From positions 1 to 47,450 of the forward strand of contig JBKOZJ010000128.1 in the NCBI GenBank assembly GCA_046725875.1: DNA of 47,450 nt. Reading direction: 5' to 3'. Below are positions 20,107 through 32,589 of this stretch, piece by piece (within the stretch, counting starts at the first letter, position 1; each line of letters begins with the position of its first letter). The notes beneath the pieces are model-generated. The model was not told the DNA's origin. It did no database searches and was given only the letters and a program-made list of their open reading frames with translations. This DNA comes from Actinomycetota bacterium. GTDB taxonomy: Bacteria > Actinomycetota > Actinomycetes > JAKEEW01. A program made the translations under genes and the position numbers.

Positions 20107-20860
20107 GTGGCCACCATTAGAAAGATCCCGCTCACACGGGCCGTCAACGGCTAGCCCGGCTCCTCGTGGCGTGTCTACTACCGTGCCCGGACGGAACACA
20201 GCGGTCTCCTGACTTCCCGCGCGAACGGGACGCTAGAGCGTTTGGGAAACCGTTCCGCTGACTGCCGAACAGGATGCGGGCCTCGCTGACGCGATCAGCG
20301 ACGGCTACCGCGCGTTAGTCATCACGGCCGCGGGGACCGGTCTTCGCATGGGTGAGCTGTTCGGGCTGACTCTGGACCGCGCGGACTTCCTGCGTCGGAC
20401 CGTGAAAGTGGACAGACAGTTGATCGACGCTGCCAGTGACGGCTTGCCCATCTTTGGACCACCGAAGACCAAGACAAGCATGCGGACAGTGCCGCTACCG
20501 CGGGTCGTCGCGGAAGCGCTTGCCGAGCACATCGTGAGGTACGGCACCGGGCCGGCTGGGCTGGTCTTCACGAACGCGAGAGGCAAGCCAATCGTGCGCC
20601 GGCACTTCTACGACTTCTGGCGTTGGGCGCTCAAGGCGGTCGAGCTTCCTACCGACACATGCTTCGTGCGCTACGCCACACCTACGTCTCGCTCTTGATC
20701 GACGCGAACGAGTCGGCCGAGGTGATCCAAGCCCGGCTCGGAAATAAGTCGATCACTGAGACGATGGACACTTACGGCCACCTCTACCCGCGGGCCGCGA
20801 AGACAGCACCCGCACTGCCATCGACGCCGCACTGTCGCCTCGTGTTGCCGAATTGTTGCC
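20107..20860 (+). pseudogene. Tyrosine recombinase/integrase pseudogene
   Basis: N-arm (VATIRK..*..WRVYYRA/PDGTQRS..F..ERDARAF) joined directly to the catalytic domain (TGLRMGEL, PPKTKTSMRTVPLP, frameshifted LRHTYVSLL, LGNKS..TMDTYGHL). Internal stop, frameshifts and a missing core-binding domain. Confidence 0.85.
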
Positions 20861-20918
20861 TCAAGCGGCCGACGAGGCGACCTCCTAATGGCTCCGCTGC
20901 AGGTCAGACCCGATAGGG

Positions 20919-21346
20919 GCGGACGAGTCGGCCTGTAAGCCGGATTCTGTGGCGCCGCGCCGAGCGGCGCCGACGGTCATCCATCTAGGACTGCCGTCGC
21001 CGGCAGCCTCGTGCGGCCTACCCGCAGGCTCGGGCGGGCCGCCCTCGAACGCCTGCGCAGGTCACCGGTCGCCTCGCGGCGAGCGGTGGCCCTCTTGGCC
21101 TTGCTCCGGGTGGGGTTTACCGAGCCGCCCGGGTCACCCCGAGCGCTGGTGGTCTCTTACACCACCCTTTCACCCTTACCGGTCCGGGCCGGCCGAAGCC
21201 GGGTGGACCGGCGGTTTGCTTTCTGTGGCACTCTCCCGCGGGTCGCCCCGGGTGGGTGTTACCCACCACCCTGCCCTGCGGAGTCCGGACTTTCCTCGGT
21301 GGCCTGGTCGCCCCGGTCACCGCGACCGCCCGGCCGGCTCGTCCGC
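20919..21346 (-). ncRNA. rnpB: RNase P RNA, bacterial type A
   Basis: Minus strand has GAGGAAAGUCCGGACUC, AGUGCCACAGAAA and ACAGAAUCCGGCUUA, with terminal P1 pairing gcggacgagcc/gactcgtccgc; usual position after the RNase H/phosphatase gene. Confidence 0.97.
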
Positions 21347-21436: not shown

Positions 21437-22702
21437 TTAGGCGGGGGCCGGCCGGAGGTGAGCCGTGTCGTTGAAGAGGCGGAGGGAGCCCGTGCCGTCC
21501 GCGAACCATGCCGCCACCGATAGGGACGCGATGGCAAGCTCCATTCGGAACACGGTCGATGTGTCGACATCGAGCGCCAGGCAGACGAACTGCTTGATCG
21601 GCGTGACGTGGCTGACCACGAGGACCGTGCGCGCCGGATGCCGCTCGAGCAAGCGATCGCGCACCCGCCGTACCCGTACTCCAACCTCGGCAAAGCTCTC
21701 CCCGCGGGGTGGCGCGTATTCGGGCGACGCGAGCCAGGCCGCGAGCTCGTCCGGCCAGCGAGCCATCACTTCCGCGAAGGTGAGACCCTCCCACTCGCCG
21801 AAGTCGCACTCGCGCAGATCGTCATCGACCTCGATCGGCACGCCTAGAACGTCGCCGGCGATGTCGGCCGTCGTACGAGCTCGCGCCAGTGGCGACGAGA
21901 CGATTGCGCTGATCGGGCCGCGGCGGGCCAGCAAAGCCGCCGCCCGTTCGGCCTGGCTAAGCCCGCGCTCGGTCAGCGGCACATCGTCGAGTCCGGAAAA
22001 CCGCTTCTCGATGCTGCGCTCCGTCTCACCGTGCCGGAGCAGAACAAGCATGGTCGGCGGCCCCAGATCCGGTGCCCAGCCCCGGGACACGGCCGCCGGT
22101 GCCTCCTCGACCGCTGACCCGCTCTCCACGGACATGCTCGTGTCCGGAGCTTGCATGCGAGTCCCGACGCGTTCGGCCACTGGTGCCCGAGCGATCGGTA
22201 GCACGGTCGAGGTCGCGGCGGCGTTCCCGGGCGAGCCGCCCGGCGGCCGGCCGAGGCGATCACCCACCCGGTCGAGCGCGACGTTCGCGAGGCGGTCGGC
22301 AGCGGCGTTCTGCTCCCTCGGGACCCACCGGTAGGTGACCTGGTCCGCTGGAAGGACGGCGGCCGCCTCCATGGCCAGCGGGCGAAGATCGGGATGCTTG
22401 ATCTTCCAGTTCCCGGACATTTGCTCGACCACCAGGCGGGAGTCCATCCGTACCTCGACCTGAGCCTGAGGGTTTAGGTCATGGGCGAGCTGGAGCCCGG
22501 CAATCAAGCCGCGATACTCGGCAACGTTGTTCGTCGCCAGCCCGAGCGCCTCGGCGACCTCGGCGAGAACGGCGCCGGTCGCCGCATCCCGGACAAGCGC
22601 TCCATACGCGGCATTGCCGGGGTTGCCCCGCGAGGCGCCGTCCGCCTCGACAATCAGCGCAACCGGCGGGGCCGAGGGCAGGGAACCGCCGGGTCCCGCC
22701 AT
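21437..22702 (-). CDS. Bifunctional RNase HI / histidine phosphatase (Rv2228c-like)
   Basis: EADGASRGNPG, TNNVAEY, DSRLVV, WVPREQN..AD; C-terminal LLRHGET and VSHVTPI. Confidence 0.93.
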   Translation of the reverse strand: MAGPGGSLPSAPPVALIVEADGASRGNPGNAAYGALVRDAATGAVLAEVAEALGLATNNVAEYRGLIAGLQLAHDLNPQAQVEVRMDSRLVVEQMSGNWKIKHPDLRPLAMEAAAVLPADQVTYRWVPREQNAAADRLANVALDRVGDRLGRPPGGSPGNAAATSTVLPIARAPVAERVGTRMQAPDTSMSVESGSAVEEAPAAVSRGWAPDLGPPTMLVLLRHGETERSIEKRFSGLDDVPLTERGLSQAERAAALLARRGPISAIVSSPLARARTTADIAGDVLGVPIEVDDDLRECDFGEWEGLTFAEVMARWPDELAAWLASPEYAPPRGESFAEVGVRVRRVRDRLLERHPARTVLVVSHVTPIKQFVCLALDVDTSTVFRMELAIASLSVAAWFADGTGSLRLFNDTAHLRPAPA

Positions 22703-22707
22703 GGCGG

Positions 22708-23451
22708 TCAGAGCCCCGACTCGGGGGTACGGACCAGGATCCGGCCACACTCCTCGCAACGCAAGACGGCGTCGTCTGGAGCGTTGCGGAAGCGCTGAAC
22801 GTCCGTAGCGCCGAGCTCGAGCCGGCACCCCTCGCAGCGGCGCTGCTTGATCGCCGCAGCCCCGACGCCACCGGTGTGCGAACGCAGCCGCTCGTAAAGC
22901 GCCAGCAGGTCCGCCGGCAGCGAGGCGGCCAGGGCCTTGCGCTTCTCCCCCAGCTCTGCCACCTCGGCGTCGATGACGGTCGTCTGCTCGTCCCGCCTGG
23001 TTTCCGCCGTAGCCAGCTCGGCCCCCCGCTCCTCGGTCTCGACCCGCAATTCGGCGACTCGTGACTGAACCGCTTCCAGCCGCTCCATGACCTCGAGGAC
23101 ACCATCCTCGAGGTCCGCCTGCCGCCTTGCCAGGGACCCGATCTCGTGTTGGAGATTTTCGAGCTCACGTGGCGAGCTGACTTGGCCGCGGTCGAGCCGC
23201 TCCTGGTCACGGCTGGCGCGCGCCCGGACCTGGTCCACATCCGCCTCGGCCTTTGCCTGTTCCCGCGCCAGATCGCTCGCCTCGGTCTCGGCCGCGACCA
23301 TGAGGTCGCGAAGTTGCGCGAGCCGGGCCGACGTGGCGTTGATCTCCGCGTGCTCTGGCAGCGTCAGGCGCCGGTGTTCGAGCTGGTCGAGGCGGGAATC
23401 GTGCGCCTGCAGCTCGAGCAGACGCTGCTGGGCGGCGGCCGAGGCGTTCAG
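22708..23451 (-). CDS. Coiled-coil C4-type zinc-ribbon protein (DUF164-like), probable CTG start
   Basis: CEGC...CEECGRIL; the frame extends upstream to CTG at 23451 (LNASAAAQQRLLELQAHD), overlapping the Nif3 stop, with RBS gggag. Confidence 0.88.
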   Translation of the reverse strand: MNASAAAQQRLLELQAHDSRLDQLEHRRLTLPEHAEINATSARLAQLRDLMVAAETEASDLAREQAKAEADVDQVRARASRDQERLDRGQVSSPRELENLQHEIGSLARRQADLEDGVLEVMERLEAVQSRVAELRVETEERGAELATAETRRDEQTTVIDAEVAELGEKRKALAASLPADLLALYERLRSHTGGVGAAAIKQRRCEGCRLELGATDVQRFRNAPDDAVLRCEECGRILVRTPESGL

Positions 23452-24323
23452 AGCTGCTCCCTCGTCGGTTCAGTTAGATCGGCTAGATCGGCGTAGCCGA
23501 TGTGTGTCTCCCACGGGTCGGTGATGATCCGCGACACTCGAGTCTCCACCGTATCCCCAGAGACAGCCAGCCGCTCCCGCAGGAGGGCGGCCGCTTCATC
23601 GAGCCATGGCCACTCGCTCGCCCAGTGCGCCACGTCTACCAGCGCCGGCCGACCCCACTCAAAGGACTCGGACGCCGGGTGATGCCGGAGGTCCGCCGTG
23701 AGGTAGACGTCGGCACCCGCGGCTCGAGCGGCGTCGAGGTGGCTGTCGCCTGCACCGCCAGAGACGGCGGCGGTCGCCACGGGTCGGTCGAGACTTCCCG
23801 CCAGCCGGATGCCGTGGACGGTCGCCGGGAGACGTTTGCGCACTCGTTCGACGAAGGCTGACAGCTCTTCCGTCGGGTCGATCGTGCAGATCCGGCCTAT
23901 CCCGCGATCCGCCGTGGCGGACCCGTCGCCGGAGCCGGTGGGCACCAGCGCCGGGCCTGGGGTCAGGCCAAGTGCTCTTGCGAGCGCGTCCGACACGCCC
24001 GGCCGAGCCACGTCGGCGTTCGTGTGGGCAACGTATAGCGCGCACCCGTTGGTCAGCAGCGCGTGTACCACCCGGCCCTTGGGAGTCGTGGCAGGAACGC
24101 CGTGCACGCCACGCAGGAAGAGCGGGTGGTGGGTGACGACGAGATCGGCCTGCCAAACGATCGCCTCAGCGGCCACCGCGTTGACCGGGTCCACCGCGAA
24201 GAGGATCTTGCCGACGGTCGCGCCGGGTTCGCCGCACACCAAGCCAACCGCGTCCCAGTCCTCGGCCCATGCGGGGTCGTACAGATCCTCGATGGACCCG
24301 ACCACGTCGGCCAGGCTCGGCAC
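23448..24323 (-). CDS. Nif3-like dinuclear metal-centre protein (YbgI family)
   Basis: AEDWDAVGL, THHPL, HTNAD, TADLRHH, HWASE motifs. Confidence 0.93.
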   Translation of the reverse strand: MPSLADVVGSIEDLYDPAWAEDWDAVGLVCGEPGATVGKILFAVDPVNAVAAEAIVWQADLVVTHHPLFLRGVHGVPATTPKGRVVHALLTNGCALYVAHTNADVARPGVSDALARALGLTPGPALVPTGSGDGSATADRGIGRICTIDPTEELSAFVERVRKRLPATVHGIRLAGSLDRPVATAAVSGGAGDSHLDAARAAGADVYLTADLRHHPASESFEWGRPALVDVAHWASEWPWLDEAAALLRERLAVSGDTVETRVSRIITDPWETHIGYADLADLTEPTREQL

Positions 24324-24386
24324 GCGCGGCAGGTTACCGTGCTGAGTCTGTTGTCGAACCGCGGGCTGGCGTCCGAGCGGGTCATG

Positions 24387-24472
24387 TTTGATCCGGCAAG
24401 CGACGGAAACCTGGGCCTGTCTCCCGGTATTCGCGACGCCGGAGGCCGGTTTCGTCAGCTTGCCGGATCAAA
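24387..24472. repeat. Long palindromic element after the FTR1 gene (terminator/REP-like)
   Basis: Perfect 15-bp arms tttgatccggcaagc / gcttgccggatcaaa with further internal pairing (gacggaaacc/ggtttcgtc). Confidence 0.7.
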
Positions 24473-24513
24473 TCGGGGGCAACGGAAGGCACCGCTACCG
24501 GTGCCACGCAGAC

Positions 24514-25383
24514 TTAGGGGTGGGCCGCGGGCTGCGGCTGGGGCTGGGGCTCAGTGGTCGGCACCGGTTTCGCCGGCCGCGGCCTCTTCAGGAAGAGGTA
24601 GCCGACGGTGAACGCGTAGCCGAGATACGCCACGATTTGCTCGACCGACGGCCGCGGATCCCAGCCGAACATCGCGCCGAAGAACTTGCCGACCTCGGTC
24701 CGGGTGGTTAGCCACGAGTACTGCGTCAGGTCGTACACGTTGTTCCACGAGATCCCCAGGTCCCCGGCGGACTGCAGGAAGAGCACCGTGCGCGAGATGA
24801 GGCCCGCCGCGAACACGATCAGGATGACCCCGGTCACCTTAAAGAACTGCGCCATCGGCAGCCGCTTTCCGCCCAGCACGACCAGGTAGCCGGCGACGCT
24901 CGCAATCGCGAGCCCGATAAACCCGCCGATGAACACGCGCGCCCCGGAGTCGGTCGTCGCGGCGGCGATCAGGAAGAGTGCCGCCTCCAGGCCTTCGCGG
25001 GCCGCCGCGAAGAATGCAGCGAGCGTGACCGCCCACCAGATGCCCCGACCTTTGGACACCGCCGCGTCGATGCTGTGTTGCAGCTCTCCTCGGATCGCCC
25101 GGGCGTGCCGGCGCATCCAGAAGATCATCCAGGTCAACACGGCAACTGCGAACAGCGAGACCGCCGCGAAGGCCCGCAGCCGTGCTGCGCCATCCAACGA
25201 CTCGATGGTCAAGTGGATGCCTATGCCGACCCCGAGCGAGACCACAGCGGCCGCACCAACGCCATACCACATCGGCCGGAACAGGTCGGGCCGGGCGATC
25301 TTCCGAAGGTACGCATAGATGATCGCTACCACAAGGGCGGTCTCGAAGCCCTCCCGCAGCATGATGAGCAGTGCAGTCATCAT
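24514..25383 (-). CDS. FTR1/EfeU-family iron permease
   Basis: Two RExxE motifs (REGFE, REGLE), MIFWM, about 7 TMs. Confidence 0.92.
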   Translation of the reverse strand: MMTALLIMLREGFETALVVAIIYAYLRKIARPDLFRPMWYGVGAAAVVSLGVGIGIHLTIESLDGAARLRAFAAVSLFAVAVLTWMIFWMRRHARAIRGELQHSIDAAVSKGRGIWWAVTLAAFFAAAREGLEAALFLIAAATTDSGARVFIGGFIGLAIASVAGYLVVLGGKRLPMAQFFKVTGVILIVFAAGLISRTVLFLQSAGDLGISWNNVYDLTQYSWLTTRTEVGKFFGAMFGWDPRPSVEQIVAYLGYAFTVGYLFLKRPRPAKPVPTTEPQPQPQPAAHP

Positions 25384-25396
25384 GAGCAGCGCCTCG

Positions 25397-25564
25397 TCAC
25401 CGCGAGCCCGAGCCGGAACCGGAACCCGATCCGGAGCCTGAACCGGAGCCCGAACCGCCGCCGCCGTTCGCGCCGTCATCGCCGCAGCCGGTGAGGCCGA
25501 GCGTTACGGCCGTGAGAAGCGCGGCCGCGGCCAACGCAAGCCGGCGTCTGCGTGTTGCGGTCAT
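25397..25564 (-). CDS. 55-aa lipoprotein: signal, lipobox and (Gly-Ser)9; possibly a truncated EfeO-like gene
   Basis: MTATRRRRLALAAAALLTAVTLGLTG|CGDDGANGGG(GS)9R*; ATGA overlap with the upstream gene; RBS gaagggat. Confidence 0.7.
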   Translation of the reverse strand: MTATRRRRLALAAAALLTAVTLGLTGCGDDGANGGGGSGSGSGSGSGSGSGSGSR

Positions 25565-27312
25565 CGTGACGATCCCTTCGTCGTAACAAGTCTCCCCGTT
25601 CCGGAGACCGGCGTTGTTGGCGGAGTGCCGCCCACCAGGGTTGGTGTACGGCGACGCTCGGCGGTCCGCGCCCCGGCAACGAGCAGAGCGAGGAGTATGG
25701 CGATCCACCCGATGTGTAGTGGCCAGAAGTCACGGCGGTAGTCAGGCAGCACGTGCCGGATAGCGGCGTAGAGCGGGTTGTCTACGCGCTGGAAGCCGCT
25801 CACCCAGGTGATCTCGCGCTGATACCCGTCGACCAGCAACGTGACATATGCGCCCACACCGATGAGGCCGAGCCCGAGCGCAACCCGCCGCAGGAGCGGG
25901 CCGCGGTCGCGCAGCCATGCGAGGACGAGCAAGACCGCGACCGGGAGTACGACGACCAGCTGCCGTCCAGGCCACCAATAACCGTGCATGGTCACGGCGA
26001 CAAACGTCGCGACCAGCCAGCCGGGAACGACGATGGCCAGCAAGACGGCCGGATCAGATGACGGACGAGAGGACGCGGAAACGCCGTTCGGCGCTCTGCT
26101 CGGCTTGTCAGATGAACCGATCCGACGGCTCAGCTTGTCAGAGGAATCGGCTGACGGGTCTGTCGATGCCTTCGCTTCCTCTGACAAGTCAGCGGTGCTA
26201 GCGAGGCGCGTCACGGGTTCTCCAGACAACGGTCCTCGGAGTTGCCGAGTCACCGCGGCTACCGCCGCTGCCGCGGCGGGAACCAGGAGGAGCCAGGCGG
26301 GCTGCCACGTCGCGATGCCGTACTCACGATCGACAAACAGCCCGACGAACCGCAACCCCCGGCCAAAGTAGTCGGGGTGGAAGCCGACGACGCCCAACTC
26401 CCCGGACTGCTGGAAGTGGTCACCGCTGGCATATACCGTCCAGCCACCCCACGCCAGCCGGTGCACAACCAGGTAGCCAGCACCCGCGACTGCGAGCGCT
26501 ACAACACCGATGCGAACGGCGATCCGGTCCCCGGTCCGCCACCACCGGACCAGCGCGAGCAGGGCGAGCACCGCGGCAACCGCGCCGTATTTGACCGAGA
26601 GCCAAGGCAGTGCCGCCACGGCACCGCTGACCACCGCGAGGTTTCCCCTCGTGCACGGGCCAAGGAACGCGGCGACGCCGACCATTGTGACGAGCGCAGC
26701 CGGTAGCTCCGGATATATCTGTTGGCCATAGACGGCGAGCGGTGGCGACGCGAATGCCACCGCAACACCGACGGCGGCAAGCGACAGCGGAAGGCGCAGC
26801 CGGCGCACCGCCGTCCAAAGGGTGAGGGCGGCCAGCAGCCCGGCAAGTGCGGCCAGCGTCAGCTTCGCGCCTACCCATCCGGCCACACCGACCGGGAGGG
26901 CGAGCAGCGCCGGCAGCAGCGGGTCATGCGGGCTGATCTGCCGACCGCCGTCGAGCGCCTCGGTCTGCACCGGCGGCTCGGCGTCGGCGAACTCGCGCCA
27001 GCGGTGCTCGCCAAGCTCGTCCGAAATGTCGAGGCTTCGGTCCTCGGCGAGAGATAGCGCGGTCAGGACATATTGCGTCTCGTCCACGGCGACATGTGCG
27101 CCGAACGTTGCCCGTACCTCGATGCCGACCGCAGCGGCCACGAACGCGATAACCCCCACGAGGAGCATCGCCCAACTTAGTGACTCGTGTCCGAAGCCGG
27201 CGTGAGCATCGCCAACGGGATGCATGGCAGAAGCCGATGGGCCGCATCGAAGTGCGGAGAGCTCGCGGCCGGCCAAACCGGCACCGCTCGGTGCACCGCC
27301 GGATCTGGTCAT
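25561..27312 (-). CDS. Multi-pass membrane protein, GT-C glycosyltransferase-like
   Basis: DE pair after the first TM (VDETQY), then QQIYPELP, LPWLSVKY, WWPGR; 11 or more hydrophobic segments; ATGA overlap with the epimerase stop. Confidence 0.65.
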   Translation of the reverse strand: MTRSGGAPSGAGLAGRELSALRCGPSASAMHPVGDAHAGFGHESLSWAMLLVGVIAFVAAAVGIEVRATFGAHVAVDETQYVLTALSLAEDRSLDISDELGEHRWREFADAEPPVQTEALDGGRQISPHDPLLPALLALPVGVAGWVGAKLTLAALAGLLAALTLWTAVRRLRLPLSLAAVGVAVAFASPPLAVYGQQIYPELPAALVTMVGVAAFLGPCTRGNLAVVSGAVAALPWLSVKYGAVAAVLALLALVRWWRTGDRIAVRIGVVALAVAGAGYLVVHRLAWGGWTVYASGDHFQQSGELGVVGFHPDYFGRGLRFVGLFVDREYGIATWQPAWLLLVPAAAAAVAAVTRQLRGPLSGEPVTRLASTADLSEEAKASTDPSADSSDKLSRRIGSSDKPSRAPNGVSASSRPSSDPAVLLAIVVPGWLVATFVAVTMHGYWWPGRQLVVVLPVAVLLVLAWLRDRGPLLRRVALGLGLIGVGAYVTLLVDGYQREITWVSGFQRVDNPLYAAIRHVLPDYRRDFWPLHIGWIAILLALLVAGARTAERRRTPTLVGGTPPTTPVSGTGRLVTTKGSSR

Positions 27313-28301
27313 ACGACCACCGGTTCGACTGGAGACTGGCTCGGCACAAGCGGGTATGCCTCGGGCCGGGTGGGGGCGAACCACGGCGCTCCCGGACGTA
27401 CACGTTGCGGCCACGTCTGCTGCACTGCTGCGACCTGGCGGCGAATCACGGCGAGCAGGTCGGTTTCCGGTGCCCAGCCGATGAGCTTGCGAAGGCGGCG
27501 GGTGTCCGCGCGAGTATCGCTCACCTCGGCCGGCTGTGCCGGCCGAACCGCGGTTTCGACGTCGCGGTCGAGCGCAGCCGCGATCGCGGTGACAACCGCG
27601 CCAAGCGTGTGACCGGTGCCGGTGCCAACGTTGACGACGCCGGCATACTCCTCCATCGCGAGCGCGACGAGGGTCCCGGCGACCTGGCGCACATCGGTGA
27701 CATCCCGAGTCCGCTTCGGTGAACCGAGGATCACGAGCGGCCGGCCGCCCTGGGCGGCCGCGATCCATCGGGCAATGGCCATATCGGTGCGCTGGCCTTC
27801 GCCGGCGACGGTGAACGGCCGGACGACCGTGACGAGACCTCCGGCCTCGATCCGGCTGGCGCACAACTGCTCGACAATGACCTTGCTCTCGGCGTAACCG
27901 CCGCGGGGCCGAAGTCGGTCGTGCTCCCGGCTCGCCCGGCCGTGCCTCACGCCTCCGTACACCGAAGAGGAGGAGGTCACCACCAGCTGGGTGCGCAGCG
28001 GGACCACCGCGGTTACCAGCGCGGTCGCGAGCACATTGTCACGGTGACGCCGAGACGCGATGTCCGGCGTGTCGTCCCGTACGCCAGGGCACCCGGCGAG
28101 GTGGAACACCACGTCGGACTCGGCCAACGCCGTCGTGACCTCCGGATTGCCCTCGAGCATGTCAGCGATGATCGTCTGGACACCAGGGTGCCCGGGCTGC
28201 GGCTCCCGATCAATCCCGACGACGCGGTGGCCGGCGCTTAGGAGGGTGCGGACGAGGGTGCGGCCGATGAAGCCTGCGGCTCCGGTAACGACCGCCGTCA
28301 C
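27309..28301 (-). CDS. NAD-dependent epimerase/dehydratase (extended SDR)
   Basis: TGAAGFIG, HLAG, SSSSVYG, YAESK, RDVTDV; RBS ggagga before GTG 28301. Confidence 0.9.
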   Translation of the reverse strand: MTAVVTGAAGFIGRTLVRTLLSAGHRVVGIDREPQPGHPGVQTIIADMLEGNPEVTTALAESDVVFHLAGCPGVRDDTPDIASRRHRDNVLATALVTAVVPLRTQLVVTSSSSVYGGVRHGRASREHDRLRPRGGYAESKVIVEQLCASRIEAGGLVTVVRPFTVAGEGQRTDMAIARWIAAAQGGRPLVILGSPKRTRDVTDVRQVAGTLVALAMEEYAGVVNVGTGTGHTLGAVVTAIAAALDRDVETAVRPAQPAEVSDTRADTRRLRKLIGWAPETDLLAVIRRQVAAVQQTWPQRVRPGAPWFAPTRPEAYPLVPSQSPVEPVVV

Positions 28302-28333
28302 TGGTCCTCCTCGCTTGGTGGCCCGTCGACCAG

Positions 28334-28367
28334 GTAGGTTAGGCTCCCCTAAGTTAGCCATACCTTA
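28334..28367. promoter_or_regulatory. Tandem overlapping IdeR/DtxR (DmdR) iron boxes
   Basis: GTAGGTTAGGCTCCCCTAA (28334-28352) matches TTAGGTTAGSCTAACCTAA at 16/19; CTAAGTTAGCCATACCTTA (28349-28367) at 14/19. Confidence 0.85.
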
Positions 28368-28464
28368 GCTGTCGGTCTAGTCCGGGTGGCGCGGGAGGAT
28401 TTCACCCCGCGTTGGAGGCTGGGCCGTCGTCCCGCAAATTGGACTCATCCGAAACGGGAGCCCG

Positions 28465-30201
28465 ATGCCGACGCCCATAGCCGGCCCGCGGCTAATGCGT
28501 GCGAAGCTCGCCGTCGGCAGCACCATGCTGGTTGCCGCGGTCGGCTACCTCGTGCAGATCGCCGACGGCTCGGCGCTGACGAGCACGGTCAGAGCCGTTG
28601 CCGCCGACCCGGCCGGGCTAACGCTTGCTGTGCTTGCCTATGCAGCAGCGTTCCTGCTGCGTTCGTGGGCCTGGCGGCGGACGCTACCCGACCTTCCGTT
28701 GGGCCACTCGTGGGCGGCCTTGCATGTGAGCCTGCTCGGCAACCACGTGCTTCCGCTGCGGCTCGGTGAGGCCTTGCGGGTGACCGGCGTGGTACGGCGG
28801 ACCCCGCTCCCAGCCCAGCCGGTGATCGCGTCGGCGCTGACCATGCGCGCCGCCGACCTGCTCACGGTGACCTCCATCGCCGCCGTCGCCGCGCCCGCAC
28901 TGGCGGTGGAGCTCGCCGGCGGATGGCTGTGGCCGCTGGCTGTCGTACTCCTTGGCCTGGTCGCCGCGGGTGCGCTGTGGTCGGGGCGGCTGCACCGGCA
29001 GGGCGCCGCGATCAGGCTCCCGTCGCCTCTGGCGCTCGCCGCCACGCTCGGCGCGTGGCTCCTCGAAGCCGCCGTGGTGTGGGAGGTCGCCCGGCAGGCC
29101 GGGCACTCACTCGGGCCGGCAGAGGCGGTCGCCGTCACGGCGGTGACGATCACGGCGCAGTCCGTCGCGGTCACGCCAGGCGGCTTCGGGTCCTACGAGG
29201 CGGCGGCCACCGCCGCGCTGGTGGTGCTCGGCGTTCCGGCAGGACCCGCATTCGGGATCGCGCTCACGACGCACGCCGTCAAGACCGTGTACGCGCTCGG
29301 GATGGGGGCGGTCGCGGTTTTCGAGCCGGAGCCGTCCTATGTCGGCCGGCTTCGGCTGCCGCGCAAGCTGCCCGCACGACCCCCGGCGCGTCCGGTCGGA
29401 CCCGACGCACCGGTGGTCGCGTTCATCCCGGTTTACAACGAGGCGGCGACGGTCGGCTCGGTCATCCGGCGGCTCCCGCCGACCGTGGGCAACCGGAGGC
29501 TCGTCGTCGTTGTCGTGGACGACGGCTCGACCGACCGGTCGGCGGAGGTCGCGGCGTCGGCGGGCGCGACCGTCGTCCGGCAGCCGGGCAATCGTGGGCT
29601 CGGGGCCGCAGTCCGCCGTGGGCTCGCGGCAGCGATCTTGTACGGGCCGGCGGTGGTGGTCTACCTCGACGCGGACGGCGAATATTTCCCCGAGGACGTC
29701 GAAGCGGTCGCGGCCCCGGTCCTGAGCGGCGCGGCCGACTACGTCGTCGGGTCCCGGTTTGCCGGCCGGATCGAGCGGATGCTGCCGCACCGCCGCTTCG
29801 GCAACCGCGTTCTCACCTTGTGGCTGCGCTGGCTGGCCCGCCGGCCGATCAGCGACGGGCAGAGCGGCTACCGGGCCTTCTCCCCCGCCGCCGCGGCCCA
29901 GGCCGAGGTCATCCACGACTACAACTACGCGCAGGTCCTCACGCTCGACCTGTTGGCCAAGGGGTTCGAGTACGCCGAGGTGCCGATCCGCTACGCGTTC
30001 CGGGAAACCGGCACATCGTTCGTGAAGCTCGGCCGATATCTGCGCAGGGTGGTGCCGGCCGTGTATCGCGAGCTGAACGCGGACAGCAGATGGGGATCGG
30101 GTCAGTCCTCCACGACGTGGGACTCGAACCGCTCTCGGGCGGCCGCCCAGGCCACCGCGTCGAACCGTTCCCCGGCCACCAGCGCGTCGACGGCGTCGTA
30201 G
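28465..30201 (+). CDS. Fusion of lysylphosphatidylglycerol-synthase-TM (flippase-like) domain and GT2 (polyprenyl-phosphate glycosyltransferase-like)
   Basis: N-terminal NHVLPLRLGE and TPGGFGSYE; C-terminal IPVYNE, VDDGSTD, NRGLG, DADGE, VGSR, DGQSGYRAF. Confidence 0.88.
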   Translation: MPTPIAGPRLMRAKLAVGSTMLVAAVGYLVQIADGSALTSTVRAVAADPAGLTLAVLAYAAAFLLRSWAWRRTLPDLPLGHSWAALHVSLLGNHVLPLRLGEALRVTGVVRRTPLPAQPVIASALTMRAADLLTVTSIAAVAAPALAVELAGGWLWPLAVVLLGLVAAGALWSGRLHRQGAAIRLPSPLALAATLGAWLLEAAVVWEVARQAGHSLGPAEAVAVTAVTITAQSVAVTPGGFGSYEAAATAALVVLGVPAGPAFGIALTTHAVKTVYALGMGAVAVFEPEPSYVGRLRLPRKLPARPPARPVGPDAPVVAFIPVYNEAATVGSVIRRLPPTVGNRRLVVVVVDDGSTDRSAEVAASAGATVVRQPGNRGLGAAVRRGLAAAILYGPAVVVYLDADGEYFPEDVEAVAAPVLSGAADYVVGSRFAGRIERMLPHRRFGNRVLTLWLRWLARRPISDGQSGYRAFSPAAAAQAEVIHDYNYAQVLTLDLLAKGFEYAEVPIRYAFRETGTSFVKLGRYLRRVVPAVYRELNADSRWGSGQSSTTWDSNRSRAAAQATASNRSPATSASTAS

Positions 30202-31523
30202 GCCATCGCCAGCGTGTGGTGCGTGTTGTCGTGCACGAACAGGCCGAGCCGGCCGAACGTGGTCACGTTCGGCAGCGTCTGCGCCCAAGCGTCCACACCG
30301 GCCAGGTGCCCACGGAAGCCGAGCTCGTAGATCGGATAGACGCGCGGCAGTCGCTCGACATGCATGCCGGCGAGCCGAACCGGCGGTAGGCCGTTTCCGG
30401 CGAGCGCGTCGGTCACGATCTCGGCGAGCGCCTGGTCCGGCGCAGTCCACAGGTCGTCGCCGACGGTGCAGGGGATCTCGCAGCAGAGCACGGTGCGGTC
30501 GGTCGGGTCGGTGGCTGACACTCGGTAGTTCGCAGGCTCCGAGATGCGGGTGACCGGTGTGTCGAGCCCGGGCAGGTAATGGGCGTCGTACGGGGTCCAT
30601 GGCCGCCCTGCGTGTACCACGTACACCAGGACCATTGCCCGGAAGCGCAGGCGACCGACGGCCTCGATGGCAACGGCGGGCGGTCCCGGGCGGGAGATCC
30701 GCGCGAGCAGCGGTAGCGGGATCGTCGAGAAGACATGGCCCGCTCGCACCCGTGTCGGCGGGGCGGCGTCATGAGACGGTGCCCTGGTCGCGATCCCCAC
30801 ATCGACTCCGCCGACGAAGGGCGCGACGTCGTCGACCTCGGCGTTGAGCCGGATCTCCGCGCCCGCTTTGGCGGCGGCCTCGGCCAGCGCTTCGACGATC
30901 TGGCCGAAGCCGCTGCGCGGGTAGTAGAACAGCCGCCCGGGACCGCGCCGGCGCGGGCGCAGCATCCGGGCTGCGATCTTCCACGGCGTGTCGGCCGCGA
31001 CCCGACGGCGCGCCTGCTCGGCGTCGATCTGCGTACCGGCCCGGCCCCAGAGCTTGACGGCGTAGGGCGCATAAAGCGCGTCATACAACGCCGGCCCCAA
31101 GCCATGCCGTAGCGCGTCGGCATAGCTGTCCGACGCCCCACGGCGCAGCGGGCCCGTGACCACATCCGCTCCAGCGCGCGCGATCAGCCCGGCCGGGAGC
31201 TCACGGACGAGCTCCCCGGGACGCAGCGGGAACCCGACCCAGCGGCCGGCGACCCGTAGCCGCCCGTTCCTCTGGCGCAGCTGCAGGTCCGCACCGAGGA
31301 GCATGCTCAGGTCGGCGAGGATGCGAGGCGGCGTCGCCGGATGGAGACGGTGGCTCCCGCGATCGACCCGGAGCCCGGCGACATCGAGGCTCCCCGCCAT
31401 CCCGCCCACGGCACCGGACCGCTCCAGAACCACGACCGCCAGTCCGTGCTCTGCGGCCCGCCAGGCAGCAGCGAGCCCGGCCGGGCCCGCGCCAAGCACG
31501 ACGAGGTCAGCACGCGTCGACAT
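30102..31523 (-). CDS. FAD-dependent oxidoreductase (protoporphyrinogen-oxidase/UDP-Galp-mutase-like)
   Basis: GAGPAGL, GGM, DRGSH, YYPRSGFG, YPIY, GRLGLF.H motifs. Confidence 0.82.
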   Translation of the reverse strand: MSTRADLVVLGAGPAGLAAAWRAAEHGLAVVVLERSGAVGGMAGSLDVAGLRVDRGSHRLHPATPPRILADLSMLLGADLQLRQRNGRLRVAGRWVGFPLRPGELVRELPAGLIARAGADVVTGPLRRGASDSYADALRHGLGPALYDALYAPYAVKLWGRAGTQIDAEQARRRVAADTPWKIAARMLRPRRRGPGRLFYYPRSGFGQIVEALAEAAAKAGAEIRLNAEVDDVAPFVGGVDVGIATRAPSHDAAPPTRVRAGHVFSTIPLPLLARISRPGPPAVAIEAVGRLRFRAMVLVYVVHAGRPWTPYDAHYLPGLDTPVTRISEPANYRVSATDPTDRTVLCCEIPCTVGDDLWTAPDQALAEIVTDALAGNGLPPVRLAGMHVERLPRVYPIYELGFRGHLAGVDAWAQTLPNVTTFGRLGLFVHDNTHHTLAMAYDAVDALVAGERFDAVAWAAARERFESHVVED

Positions 31524-31953
31524 TTGCAGGCAACCCTACGACCTGCTGTTCGGGTCCTGGATTGTCCGCCTACCGCAGCGCTGCGACAGTCAGCTGACGG
31601 CGCGGGCGGCCGATCGGCCTCCAATTGGATCGATCAAGGCGCCGGCGGCGAGGCCAGACCCGAAGGTGAGCACTCCCTGTACTCGCCACGTCTGATCTAC
31701 TTGCCCCCCGCGATCGATCGAGACGGTCCCAGGTGGCGAACTGGGGTCGGAAGGTCCACTCGGAATCACCCGACCTGATCGCCCGTGCTGGATGATCGAT
31801 CGTTGTGATCGCAGGTAGCCCTGGGATCGGCGATGAGTCGACCTGAAGCCACCGATCTGATCGACAATTCCAATCGATCAATCGCAAGGGTGTGAAGCGC
31901 ACCGGTGATCCGGCCGACCACGACGCGCCCGCGGAGGTCGGGAGACTCAATCC

Positions 31954-32589
31954 TCAAGTGGCCGCTTGAGCCTCAGCAGAGCGGGGGGACTCGGGGGCGA
32001 GCGGCGGGTTGATCGTGTAGCCGACCGATAGCCCACCCGGACGGCTGGGCAGTGGCGCACTGCCGGGGCGGAGTGGCCGGACGGCACACGCCTTCTTCAG
32101 CGCCTCCAGACCTTCCTCCCAGCCCGTCGTGTATGCGCGCCGAGTCTCGGCGTCGACCTCACCGCACCACGCGTGTTGAACTCGGACGATCGTCGAAGCG
32201 GGCGCCGGAACCGCACCGGCGGCGAAGCCGGCGGGCAGCCGCGCGGAGTCGCGATCGGTGTTAGCCGCGTGGGCAGTGCCGGGACGTACCCCGTCGAGCT
32301 CGATGGTCCAGGCGGAGGCCGCCGCTCCCCGCATCCCCATCGGCCGCGACACCACCAGCGCGGACGGACGTTCGATGAAGGTCACGAGCCCGTACAGCGC
32401 CCCCGCCTCGCCGCCCCAGTCCTCCATGAACCGGCCACCGACCCACGGCTCGAGTGAGACGGCCGAGTCCTTCCGCAGCCGATGCGGCCACCACTCGCCG
32501 ACCTGCAGCAGCGTGTCGAATACATGCTCCCGCGCTGCGGCGATCCGGACCTCCCGCCGGATCTCCGGCTCAACGGCTCCCGTGCTCAT
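31954..32589 (-). CDS. SRPBCC/AHSA1-like domain protein
   Basis: EVRIAA.REHVF...WWP, LEPWVGG.F.E, C-terminal GW...LEALK; RBS ggag. Confidence 0.8.
   Translation of the reverse strand: MSTGAVEPEIRREVRIAAAREHVFDTLLQVGEWWPHRLRKDSAVSLEPWVGGRFMEDWGGEAGALYGLVTFIERPSALVVSRPMGMRGAAASAWTIELDGVRPGTAHAANTDRDSARLPAGFAAGAVPAPASTIVRVQHAWCGEVDAETRRAYTTGWEEGLEALKKACAVRPLRPGSAPLPSRPGGLSVGYTINPPLAPESPRSAEAQAAT

Follow-up and report, generated by a model that had tools for sequence, protein, structure and literature searches.

The sequence analysed here (the window) comprises positions 1 to 47,450 of contig JBKOZJ010000128.1 from an Actinomycetota bacterium (JAKEEW01; assembly GCA_046725875.1, 3.76 Mb, 89% complete). 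The locus of interest contains the following genes and features:

24514..25383, minus strand: FTR1/EfeU-type iron permease, 289 aa counted from the ATG at 25383 (PF03239, E 1.8e-43)
25397..25564, minus strand: prelipoprotein of 55 aa; predicted mature lipopeptide with no folded domain, likely acceptor
25403..25456, minus strand: (Gly-Ser)9 repeat, in mixed synonymous codons according to the codon list
25561..27312, minus strand: GT-C-fold membrane glycosyltransferase of an unnamed family
27309..28301, minus strand: NAD-dependent epimerase (PF01370), closest to UDP-glucuronate 4-epimerases
28334..28367, no strand: two overlapping IdeR/DtxR-type operators (predicted), between the divergent epimerase and GT2 starts
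28465..30201, plus strand: fusion of LPG_synthase_TM (flippase-like; PF03706, E 8e-24) and polyprenyl-phosphate GT2 (PF00535, E 2e-21)
30102..31523, minus strand: PRK07208-like FAD enzyme, homologue of eukaryote-type UDP-galactopyranose mutase

The arrangement described in the initial annotation was recovered in full. The genes for epimerase, membrane protein and lipoprotein (28301–27309, 27312–25561 and 25564–25397) are linked via ATGA overlaps, FTR1 starts at 25383, 13 nt past the lipoprotein stop, and ends at 24514, and the GT2 fusion (28465–30201) and the FAD enzyme (31523–30102) are convergent with a 100-nt overlap. The tandem IdeR/DtxR-type sites lie, as claimed, at 28334–28352 and 28349–28367, each with three mismatches to what we take to be the IdeR/DtxR consensus. 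At this level, zero sites were expected (100 shuffles) and only three exist in the entire assembly; the predicted 19-bp operator is above chance and its position is conserved among loci. The genome encodes an IdeR-type repressor (E 1e-78 to IdeR 1fx7). Allowing up to six mismatches over 24000–32500, we found only the 28334–28367 cluster, and the FAD enzyme had no box directly upstream within the window in a scan to six mismatches. In the locus comparison, the set of four enzymes and the iron box were both conserved; the locus is a predicted four-enzyme lipid-carrier sugar-transfer module behind that box.

The best solved relatives of the epimerase are MoeE5 (6kv9, E 4e-33) and 6zl6 (E 1e-20), the latter named 'epimerase domain-containing protein'; we take both to be UDP-glucuronate epimerases. 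The motifs PGVR, SSSVYG, YxxxK and FTVxGxxQRxDM are shared with these closest relatives, and by homology the enzyme is a putative converter of UDP-glucuronate to UDP-galacturonate. The structures nearest to the GT2 domain are DPM synthase 5mlz and ArnC, while the flippase-like domain of the fusion contains PF03706 and scores below the cut-off for TIGR00374. For the membrane protein at 25561–27312, the suspected multi-pass GT-C fold was borne out by structural matches, the best of which include ALG12, ArnT, AftB, Pmt4 and Pmt2. Because ALG12 and ArnT score like Pmt4, the acceptor class is not readable from the fold, which cannot discriminate between protein, glycan and lipid. A DE motif after the first helix (approximately 27084–27079; D48–E49 of P0001, the window protein) is invariant over 36 rows with identity down to 26%, and may be the acidic catalytic motif in a predicted first external loop. 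The GT-C fits no profile: PMT/GT39 profiles matched neither the window protein nor any of 57 relatives, and one relative had a faint GtrII match (E 0.0047). In Planobispora rosea, the GT-C is WP_068926647.1. The window protein contains a low-complexity insert that most relatives lack. Two UniRef names include "PMT", which are automatic labels.

The initial annotation proposed the Ser-rich linker of the iron-uptake lipoprotein as a plausible target of glycosylation. The (GS)9 repeat is exact, but the ORF of 55 codons has its stop immediately 3' of the repeat, so no iron-binding domain follows that it could link. Ser-rich lipoprotein segments stand as the likely acceptor. The window lipoprotein, however, is a tag peptide on its own rather than an iron-uptake protein that contains a linker, and its predicted mature form of 29 residues is given as Cys, Asp-Asp-Gly and then (GS)9. 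It weakly matches the N-terminus of the FEA1-related lipoprotein NF038033. The Cys-x-Asp-Asp-Gly start is by itself common among unrelated lipoproteins.

In other genomes, the tag is found on several unrelated iron-uptake lipoproteins. EfeO, FEA1 and P19 proteins whose genes lie at a distance from the module have the repeat only in module-bearing genomes. Part of the contrast of 17/19 vs 0/61 reflects lineage, because related genomes do not count independently and the tagged EfeO belong mostly to the cupredoxin-less type. Two cases speak against a strict link of tag, box and module. In one 75% complete genome (G020), a P19 lipoprotein is tagged and perfectly boxed, with no GT-C, FAD enzyme or GT2 match; in another (G001), an ABC binding protein is tagged and has no box. 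The repeat is highly variable in length and shows Ser-to-Thr exchange. From the gene coupling and the phylogenetic profile of the tag we consider it likely, by a modest degree, that the module O-glycosylates the Ser/Thr-Gly repeat tag of iron-uptake lipoproteins, here that of the tiny stand-alone lipopeptide.

When iron is limiting, the module could instead decorate a non-protein target in the envelope (a cell-wall polymer, lipoglycan or glycolipid), as GtrABC or ArnT systems do, with the peptide as an accessory subunit or bystander. This would agree with the glycan and lipid modifiers ALG12, ArnT and AftB among the top structural matches, and with the distant GT-C homologs that sit in GT4/methyltransferase clusters without iron genes. 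It would also suit the mycobacterial carriers G388 and G679, where module and box are present and no tagged protein was found, and the peptides that retain only the acidic start. Counting against the tag reading itself are these two carriers and G122 (61% complete), which likewise shows no tagged protein, the EfeO of G388, which lacks the repeat, and 8 of the 30 tiny peptides in which a long repeat is missing, some of them having just 2–5 Ser/Thr. We nevertheless think the non-protein alternative unlikely, as it leaves unexplained both the restriction of the far-encoded repeats to module-bearing genomes and the exchange of Ser for Thr.

Glycosylation of the tags might also do no more than make the linker of iron-uptake lipoproteins stiffer or shield it, for protease protection or membrane spacing, the role ascribed to ordinary O-mannosylation in actinobacteria, and the stand-alone peptide would then be the vestige of a lost cupredoxin domain. 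In other classes, the same position holds a tag+cupredoxin or tag+FEA1 gene; as a quick tree places these lineages outside the rows from Actinomycetes, the peptide would on that account be derived by domain loss, and the wide variation in repeat length fits as well. However, 30 of 40 loci, from many families, retain the domain-less peptide with signal and lipobox intact and codons mixed, and in some loci it has a box of its own. Moreover, no other lipoprotein carrying such a repeat was found in the 89% complete assembly, so the pathway would here serve a vestige. We judge this explanation distinctly improbable.

The initial annotation also expected a conserved association with FTR1, which did not hold: FTR1 is present at 10 of 40 Actinomycetes loci and at none of 15 loci in other classes. 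FbpABC is the commoner partner, and 19 of the 40 loci have neither FTR1 nor FbpA in the DNA fetched, several of these being short contigs. We conclude that FTR1 is an exchangeable partner of the module. The permease of the window, whose relatives align from the start at 25383, scores 229.5 bits against the NCBIfam EfeU model, below the cut-off of 255, and differs from EfeUOB in having no EfeO (imelysin) or EfeB (DyP) beside it in the window; PF09375 was unmatched and tblastn found neither in the 89% complete assembly. It is very improbable that the peptide, with its acidic start and flexible tail, is itself an FTR1 accessory that needs no sugar, the glycosylation genes being neighbours that share a repressor. 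Asp-Asp-Gly is the best conserved part of the peptide alignment and the peptide abuts FTR1 in the window, but it tracks GT-C and not FTR1, occurring in many FTR1-less loci and missing from the FTR1 locus L059, and the ATGA overlap is expected to couple its translation to that of GT-C.

The profile of the FAD enzyme fits UDP-galactopyranose mutases over 320 positions (E 1.3e-20), covering most of the fungal enzyme, and scores 33.6 bits against TIGR00031, below the cut-off of 303.75. His, Arg, Tyr and Asn residues aligned to what we take to be the catalytic residues of the mutase active site are invariant in 25 rows. That it is a protoporphyrinogen oxidase, the label given by many databases, and the locus a heme/iron cluster and not a single pathway, is the least credible alternative, as the match to the solved oxidase 3lov is confined to positions 3–77 and the gene co-travels with GT2 across loci.

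The preferred reading, glycosylation of the tag, can be laid out in five steps. Iron shortage would make IdeR release both divergent units, the boxes, the genome-encoded IdeR, gene order and fold being read from the sequence. The epimerase would convert UDP-glucuronate to UDP-galacturonate, and the mutase-like flavoenzyme would further alter the sugar, ring contraction being the simplest guess. GT2 would place the sugar onto polyprenyl phosphate, the fused membrane domain would flip it, and GT-C would transfer it to Ser/Thr residues in the tag, directly outside the membrane, as gene coupling and the phylogenetic profile of the tag suggest. Jointly, we find these four steps somewhat more likely than not. 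In the fifth and most speculative step, which we put forward tentatively, as many as nine acidic sugars in close succession, together with the Asp-Asp start, would retain Fe(III) at the membrane and pass it to the importer at hand, FTR1 here and FbpABC or EfeUOB elsewhere. The lipopeptide might then, in a still more tentative picture, be a ribosomally made, membrane-tethered glyco-siderophore or bacterial mini-proteoglycan: a dedicated GT-C family would load its Ser-Gly repeat densely with a uronic sugar, acidic and possibly a furanose, to form an iron trap feeding interchangeable importers, and the same tag would be a portable address label on four unrelated iron-uptake domains.

Several known systems resemble parts of this scheme. 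Actinobacterial Ppm1/Pmt (GT39) O-mannosylation, a housekeeping pathway, uses a GT2-made lipid donor and a GT-C with a DE motif to modify Ser/Thr-rich N-terminal segments of lipoproteins; the module is similar in its predicted GT2-made donor, its DE-motif GT-C and its likely Ser/Thr-rich acceptor segments, with Pmt4 and Pmt2 among the best fold matches, and differs in lacking a PMT profile match and in its dedicated iron-boxed operon, own sugar enzymes and narrow tagged substrate set. Galacturonosylation by Rhizobium LpsL/RgtE/RgtA-D has a similar enzyme set (UDP-glucuronate epimerase, polyprenyl-phosphate-GalA synthase and ArnT-like transferases) and LPS as its acceptor; we know of no iron control or mutase-like enzyme there, whereas the module has a mutase-like enzyme, predicted iron control and a likely non-LPS acceptor. 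In siderophore-microcins such as MccE492, the Ser-rich tail of a short ribosomal peptide receives a sugar-linked iron-binding group, and the defining catechol siderophore enzymes and C-terminal ester ligase are encoded in the cluster. Neither was among the recurrent neighbours in clusters of 63 loci; unlike MccE492, the lipopeptide is membrane-anchored, has no catechol, NRPS or toxin part, and its enzymes are unrelated.

Three-component extracytoplasmic glycosylation (GtrABC; pentofuranose systems) combines a polyprenyl-phosphate sugar synthase, a flippase and a GT-C with auxiliary epimerases, according to the available part of Kelly et al. 2024 (PMC11127046), and excerpts of a commentary (PMC11194591) mention Bacillus systems with additional FAD oxidoreductases and NAD(P) epimerases. 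The acceptors known for these systems are mainly polysaccharides, and the word 'iron' is absent from the commentary. The module shares the PF00535 polyprenyl-phosphate GT2, the GT-C and the epimerase, and its LPG_synthase_TM domain is a candidate flippase, whereas this domain and GT2 are fused, its GT-C falls outside the profiles, its control by an iron box is predicted and its likely acceptor is a peptide tag. EfeUOB/M, FbpABC, P19-Ftr1 and FEA1 transporters or binding domains adjoin the module or carry its tag; the accessible sections of PMC9174327 do not mention glycosylation of these proteins and describe an EfeO-like protein, Algp7, that binds the polyuronide alginate. Proteoglycan cores of the Ser-Gly type, serglycin among them, are small proteins whose glycans are attached at consecutive Ser-Gly repeats bordered by acidic residues (PMC4859157, in part); serglycin is an animal protein modified in the Golgi by nucleotide-sugar enzymes, and its likeness to the lipopeptide is an analogy alone.

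If true, the reading would tie protein glycosylation directly to iron acquisition, an undescribed means of dressing the cell surface to capture iron. It would also establish a new GT-C family that acts on a short, portable acceptor tag, and assign a role to a gene whose small size puts it beyond most annotation. Gly-Ser repeats are the commonest engineered linker, and a GT-C reading them could serve as a glycoengineering tool. Carriers of the module range from actinomycetes of soil to metagenome lineages of low GC content, and among them are the cultured genera Nonomuraea, Streptosporangium, Planobispora, Sporichthya, Haloechinothrix and Carbonactinospora, so the module is testable now.

All seven elements named in the initial annotation were found at the coordinates it gave, and they are listed here after two flanking features.

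20348–20916, forward strand: two short overlapping ORFs, recognized by eye only
20920–21341, reverse strand: RNase P RNA gene, class A
24514–25383, reverse strand: FTR1 iron permease
25397–25564, reverse strand: lipoprotein
25561–27312, reverse strand: GT-C membrane protein
27309–28301, reverse strand: epimerase
28334 and 28349: overlapping 19-bp IdeR/DtxR-type boxes
28465–30201, forward strand: flippase–GT2 fusion
30102–31523, reverse strand: FAD enzyme

As claimed there, ATGA overlaps link the epimerase, membrane protein and lipoprotein genes, FTR1 lies close behind (start 25383, 13 nt on), and the flippase–GT2 and FAD enzyme genes converge, their 3′ ends overlapping by 100 nt (30102–30201). 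Many relatives share this last arrangement, and the C-terminal residues HVVED of the FAD enzyme are invariant in 25 rows. The GT-C protein carries a low-complexity, Ser/Asp/Lys-rich insert of about 50–60 residues (about 26050–26250, reverse strand), modeled with low confidence and absent from most relatives. The iron module is inserted beside a conserved RNase P RNA/RNase H/Nif3 block, in which the RNase P RNA gene lies upstream of its usual companions, the RNase H/phosphatase, zinc-ribbon and Nif3 genes (21437–24323); by eye only, the two short ORFs look like a disrupted tyrosine integrase C terminus.

The tandem boxes were confirmed, each site having 3 mismatches to an IdeR/DtxR consensus. 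Sites of at most 3 mismatches were absent from 100 shuffles of the window and numbered only 3 in the whole assembly, G000:C25:31344 being the sole further operator-like one. A box scan of positions 24000–32500, allowing up to 6 mismatches, found no separate box for the FAD gene. The host has a typical IdeR gene in its 89%-complete assembly, and the IdeR regulon looks very small, unless parts are missing from the assembly. For comparison, we fetched 40 loci from 39 published Actinomycetes genomes, the host's own excluded, and 20 from other classes, of which 15 were close homologs. Among the 40 loci with a readable GT2 start, 3 split loci included, a box lay upstream of GT2 in 29 at up to 4 mismatches and in 38 at up to 5; among 800 random windows, the corresponding counts were 17 and 18. 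At three loci from other classes (L169, L171 and L175), a DtxR-family repressor gene adjoins the module.

The lipoprotein had been described as an iron-uptake protein with a Ser-rich linker, a reading that did not hold: the 55-codon ORF encodes an anchor and a repeat without a domain, with 29 residues after the predicted lipobox cysteine, the last part being (GS)9-Arg. It is the only lipoprotein found in the host genome with such a repeat; its Asp-Asp-Gly start is generic among lipoproteins. A broken EfeO was ruled out, as domain-less peptides of 18–87 residues recur in 30 of the 40 Actinomycetes loci, mostly directly 3′ of GT-C (one extra was found by eye). An alternating Ser/Thr-Gly run of at least 5, here called the tag, was present in 22 of these 30 peptides, the long repeat being absent from the other 8, and serine codons are mixed TCN/AGY (AGY 29 of 115 across 10 peptides). 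At the same gene position in other classes, a cupredoxin or FEA1 domain comes after the tag (8/15 loci, strict scan), with Thr-Gly replacing Ser-Gly in L169 and L179. Three split modules (L070, L072 and L073) pair GT-C with a tiny Pro-rich lipopeptide lacking the repeat; the divergent neighbor encodes a protein rich in Pro and Lys that weakly matches a GVDTG sorting domain, and in these genomes the repeat is present on EfeO and FEA1.

If the tag is the acceptor, distant iron lipoproteins should be tagged only in module-bearing genomes, and we tested this prediction on EfeO, found in 149 of 401 genomes, 23 with GT-C and 126 without. Nineteen of the 23 were scored (left out: two from unpublished genomes, one lacking listed coordinates and one that could not be read) and compared with 61 EfeO regions, hand-picked across families, that came from 59 of the 126; two more regions were unreadable and in three no clear lipobox was seen. 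Of the GT-C-positive EfeO, 17/19 had at least 5 alternating S/G, vs. 0/61 of the GT-C-negative ones, in a nonrandom sample of nonindependent kin. Same-family pairs showed the same trend, tagged with GT-C and untagged without; both GT-C-positive cupredoxin-type EfeO were tagged and four GT-C-negative cupredoxin-less ones were not. Two Nonomuraea genomes lack the adjacent peptide, and in both EfeO is what the tag profile matches best genome-wide; two genomes (G145 and G029) carry tagged, boxed FEA1 and P19 lipoproteins far from the module. At E 1e-10, the profile matched in 25/40 published module genomes vs. 1/358 others, a partly circular comparison. Some results count against the proposal: one 75% complete genome (G020) has a tagged and boxed P19 and no module gene was found in it, in G001 an ABC binding protein is tagged but has no box, 8 of the 30 peptides are short of a long repeat, and the FAD gene here is without a box of its own. 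The EfeO counts speak against the less likely rival reading that the module glycosylates a non-protein acceptor; two mycobacterial carriers in which no tagged protein was found speak for it. The mycobacterial loci L025, L026, L027 and L071 combine FbpABC, module and box, again with no tagged protein found, and past a second box encode a small secreted protein, presumably hemophore-like.

The two best solved relatives of the epimerase, with motifs common to all, are MoeE5 and 6zl6, which we take to be UDP-glucuronate 4-epimerases; UDP-glucose dehydrogenase-like genes occur within a few loci. For GT2, the closest structures were dolichol-phosphate mannose synthase and ArnC. Many sources label the FAD enzyme protoporphyrinogen oxidase, a very unlikely identity: the profile of the FAD enzyme aligned to a porphyrinogen oxidase solely at the FAD-binding start, but along the sequence to UDP-galactopyranose mutases of the eukaryote type (E 1.3e-20). 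Because of these three homologies, the simplest reading is a donor sugar derived from galacturonate.

Most likely, iron shortage would take IdeR off both divergent units, a nucleotide sugar, probably a galacturonate derivative, would be loaded onto polyprenyl phosphate and flipped, and GT-C would place it on the Ser/Thr of the tag. Because whole families retain a gene for anchor and tag only, the useful product is likely to be the glycan. Our leading guess is an acidic brush that may hold Fe(III) beside the importer. Loose precedents are proteoglycans, which carry glycans at Ser-Gly repeats flanked by acidic residues (PMC4859157), and an EfeO-like protein that binds the polyuronide alginate (PMC9174327); the rival to such a brush is a tag glycan with a mere shielding role. 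The module parts are of the same kind as those of three-component lipid-carrier glycosylation (PMC11127046, PMC11194591). Our literature search found in print neither iron control of such a module, nor the unnamed GT-C family, nor a portable tag shared by four iron-uptake domains that are unrelated to one another, nor a stand-alone tag peptide.

GT-C was found in at least 43 of 401 Actinomycetes genomes (at least 40 of 398 with three unpublished ones set aside) and, phylum-wide, in 37 of 301, about ten being weak or distant matches. Three genomes have an isolated GT-C, with epimerase, box and GT2 elsewhere; the FAD gene was seen in 2/3 of the epimerase/GT2 stretches fetched from them. FTR1 occurs in 10/40 Actinomycetes and 0/15 other-class loci, the FbpA-type ferric binding protein in 11/40 and 12/15, and EfeO-EfeB in 4/40 Actinomycetes loci; 19/40 have neither FTR1 nor FbpA, several being short contigs. 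EfeO and EfeB were not found in the host assembly (89% complete). In a quick tree, the iron-linked GT-C rows fall into a single supported group (57 rows), with Fbp-linked rows at its base and FTR1 confined to Actinomycetes rows; more distant homologs lie in GT4/methyltransferase clusters without iron genes. The neighbor counts, boxes and tree therefore indicate that, of the conserved association proposed initially, the iron linkage of the module stands (boxes, FbpA/EfeO neighbors) and the linkage to FTR1 does not. A further, improbable rival is that the genes are unrelated neighbors.

One genome (G004) has two module copies on different tree branches (L042 and L050), reflecting either transfer or bin contamination. 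The loci of the distant homologs L248 and L249 comprise flippase/GT2, FTR1 and GT-C, with a Ser-Ala-rich lipoprotein in L248; no IdeR-type box was found at either locus, and the system may extend to lineages that do not use IdeR. Two metagenome loci of 45% G+C hold the whole module with box, FbpAB and a tagged FEA1.
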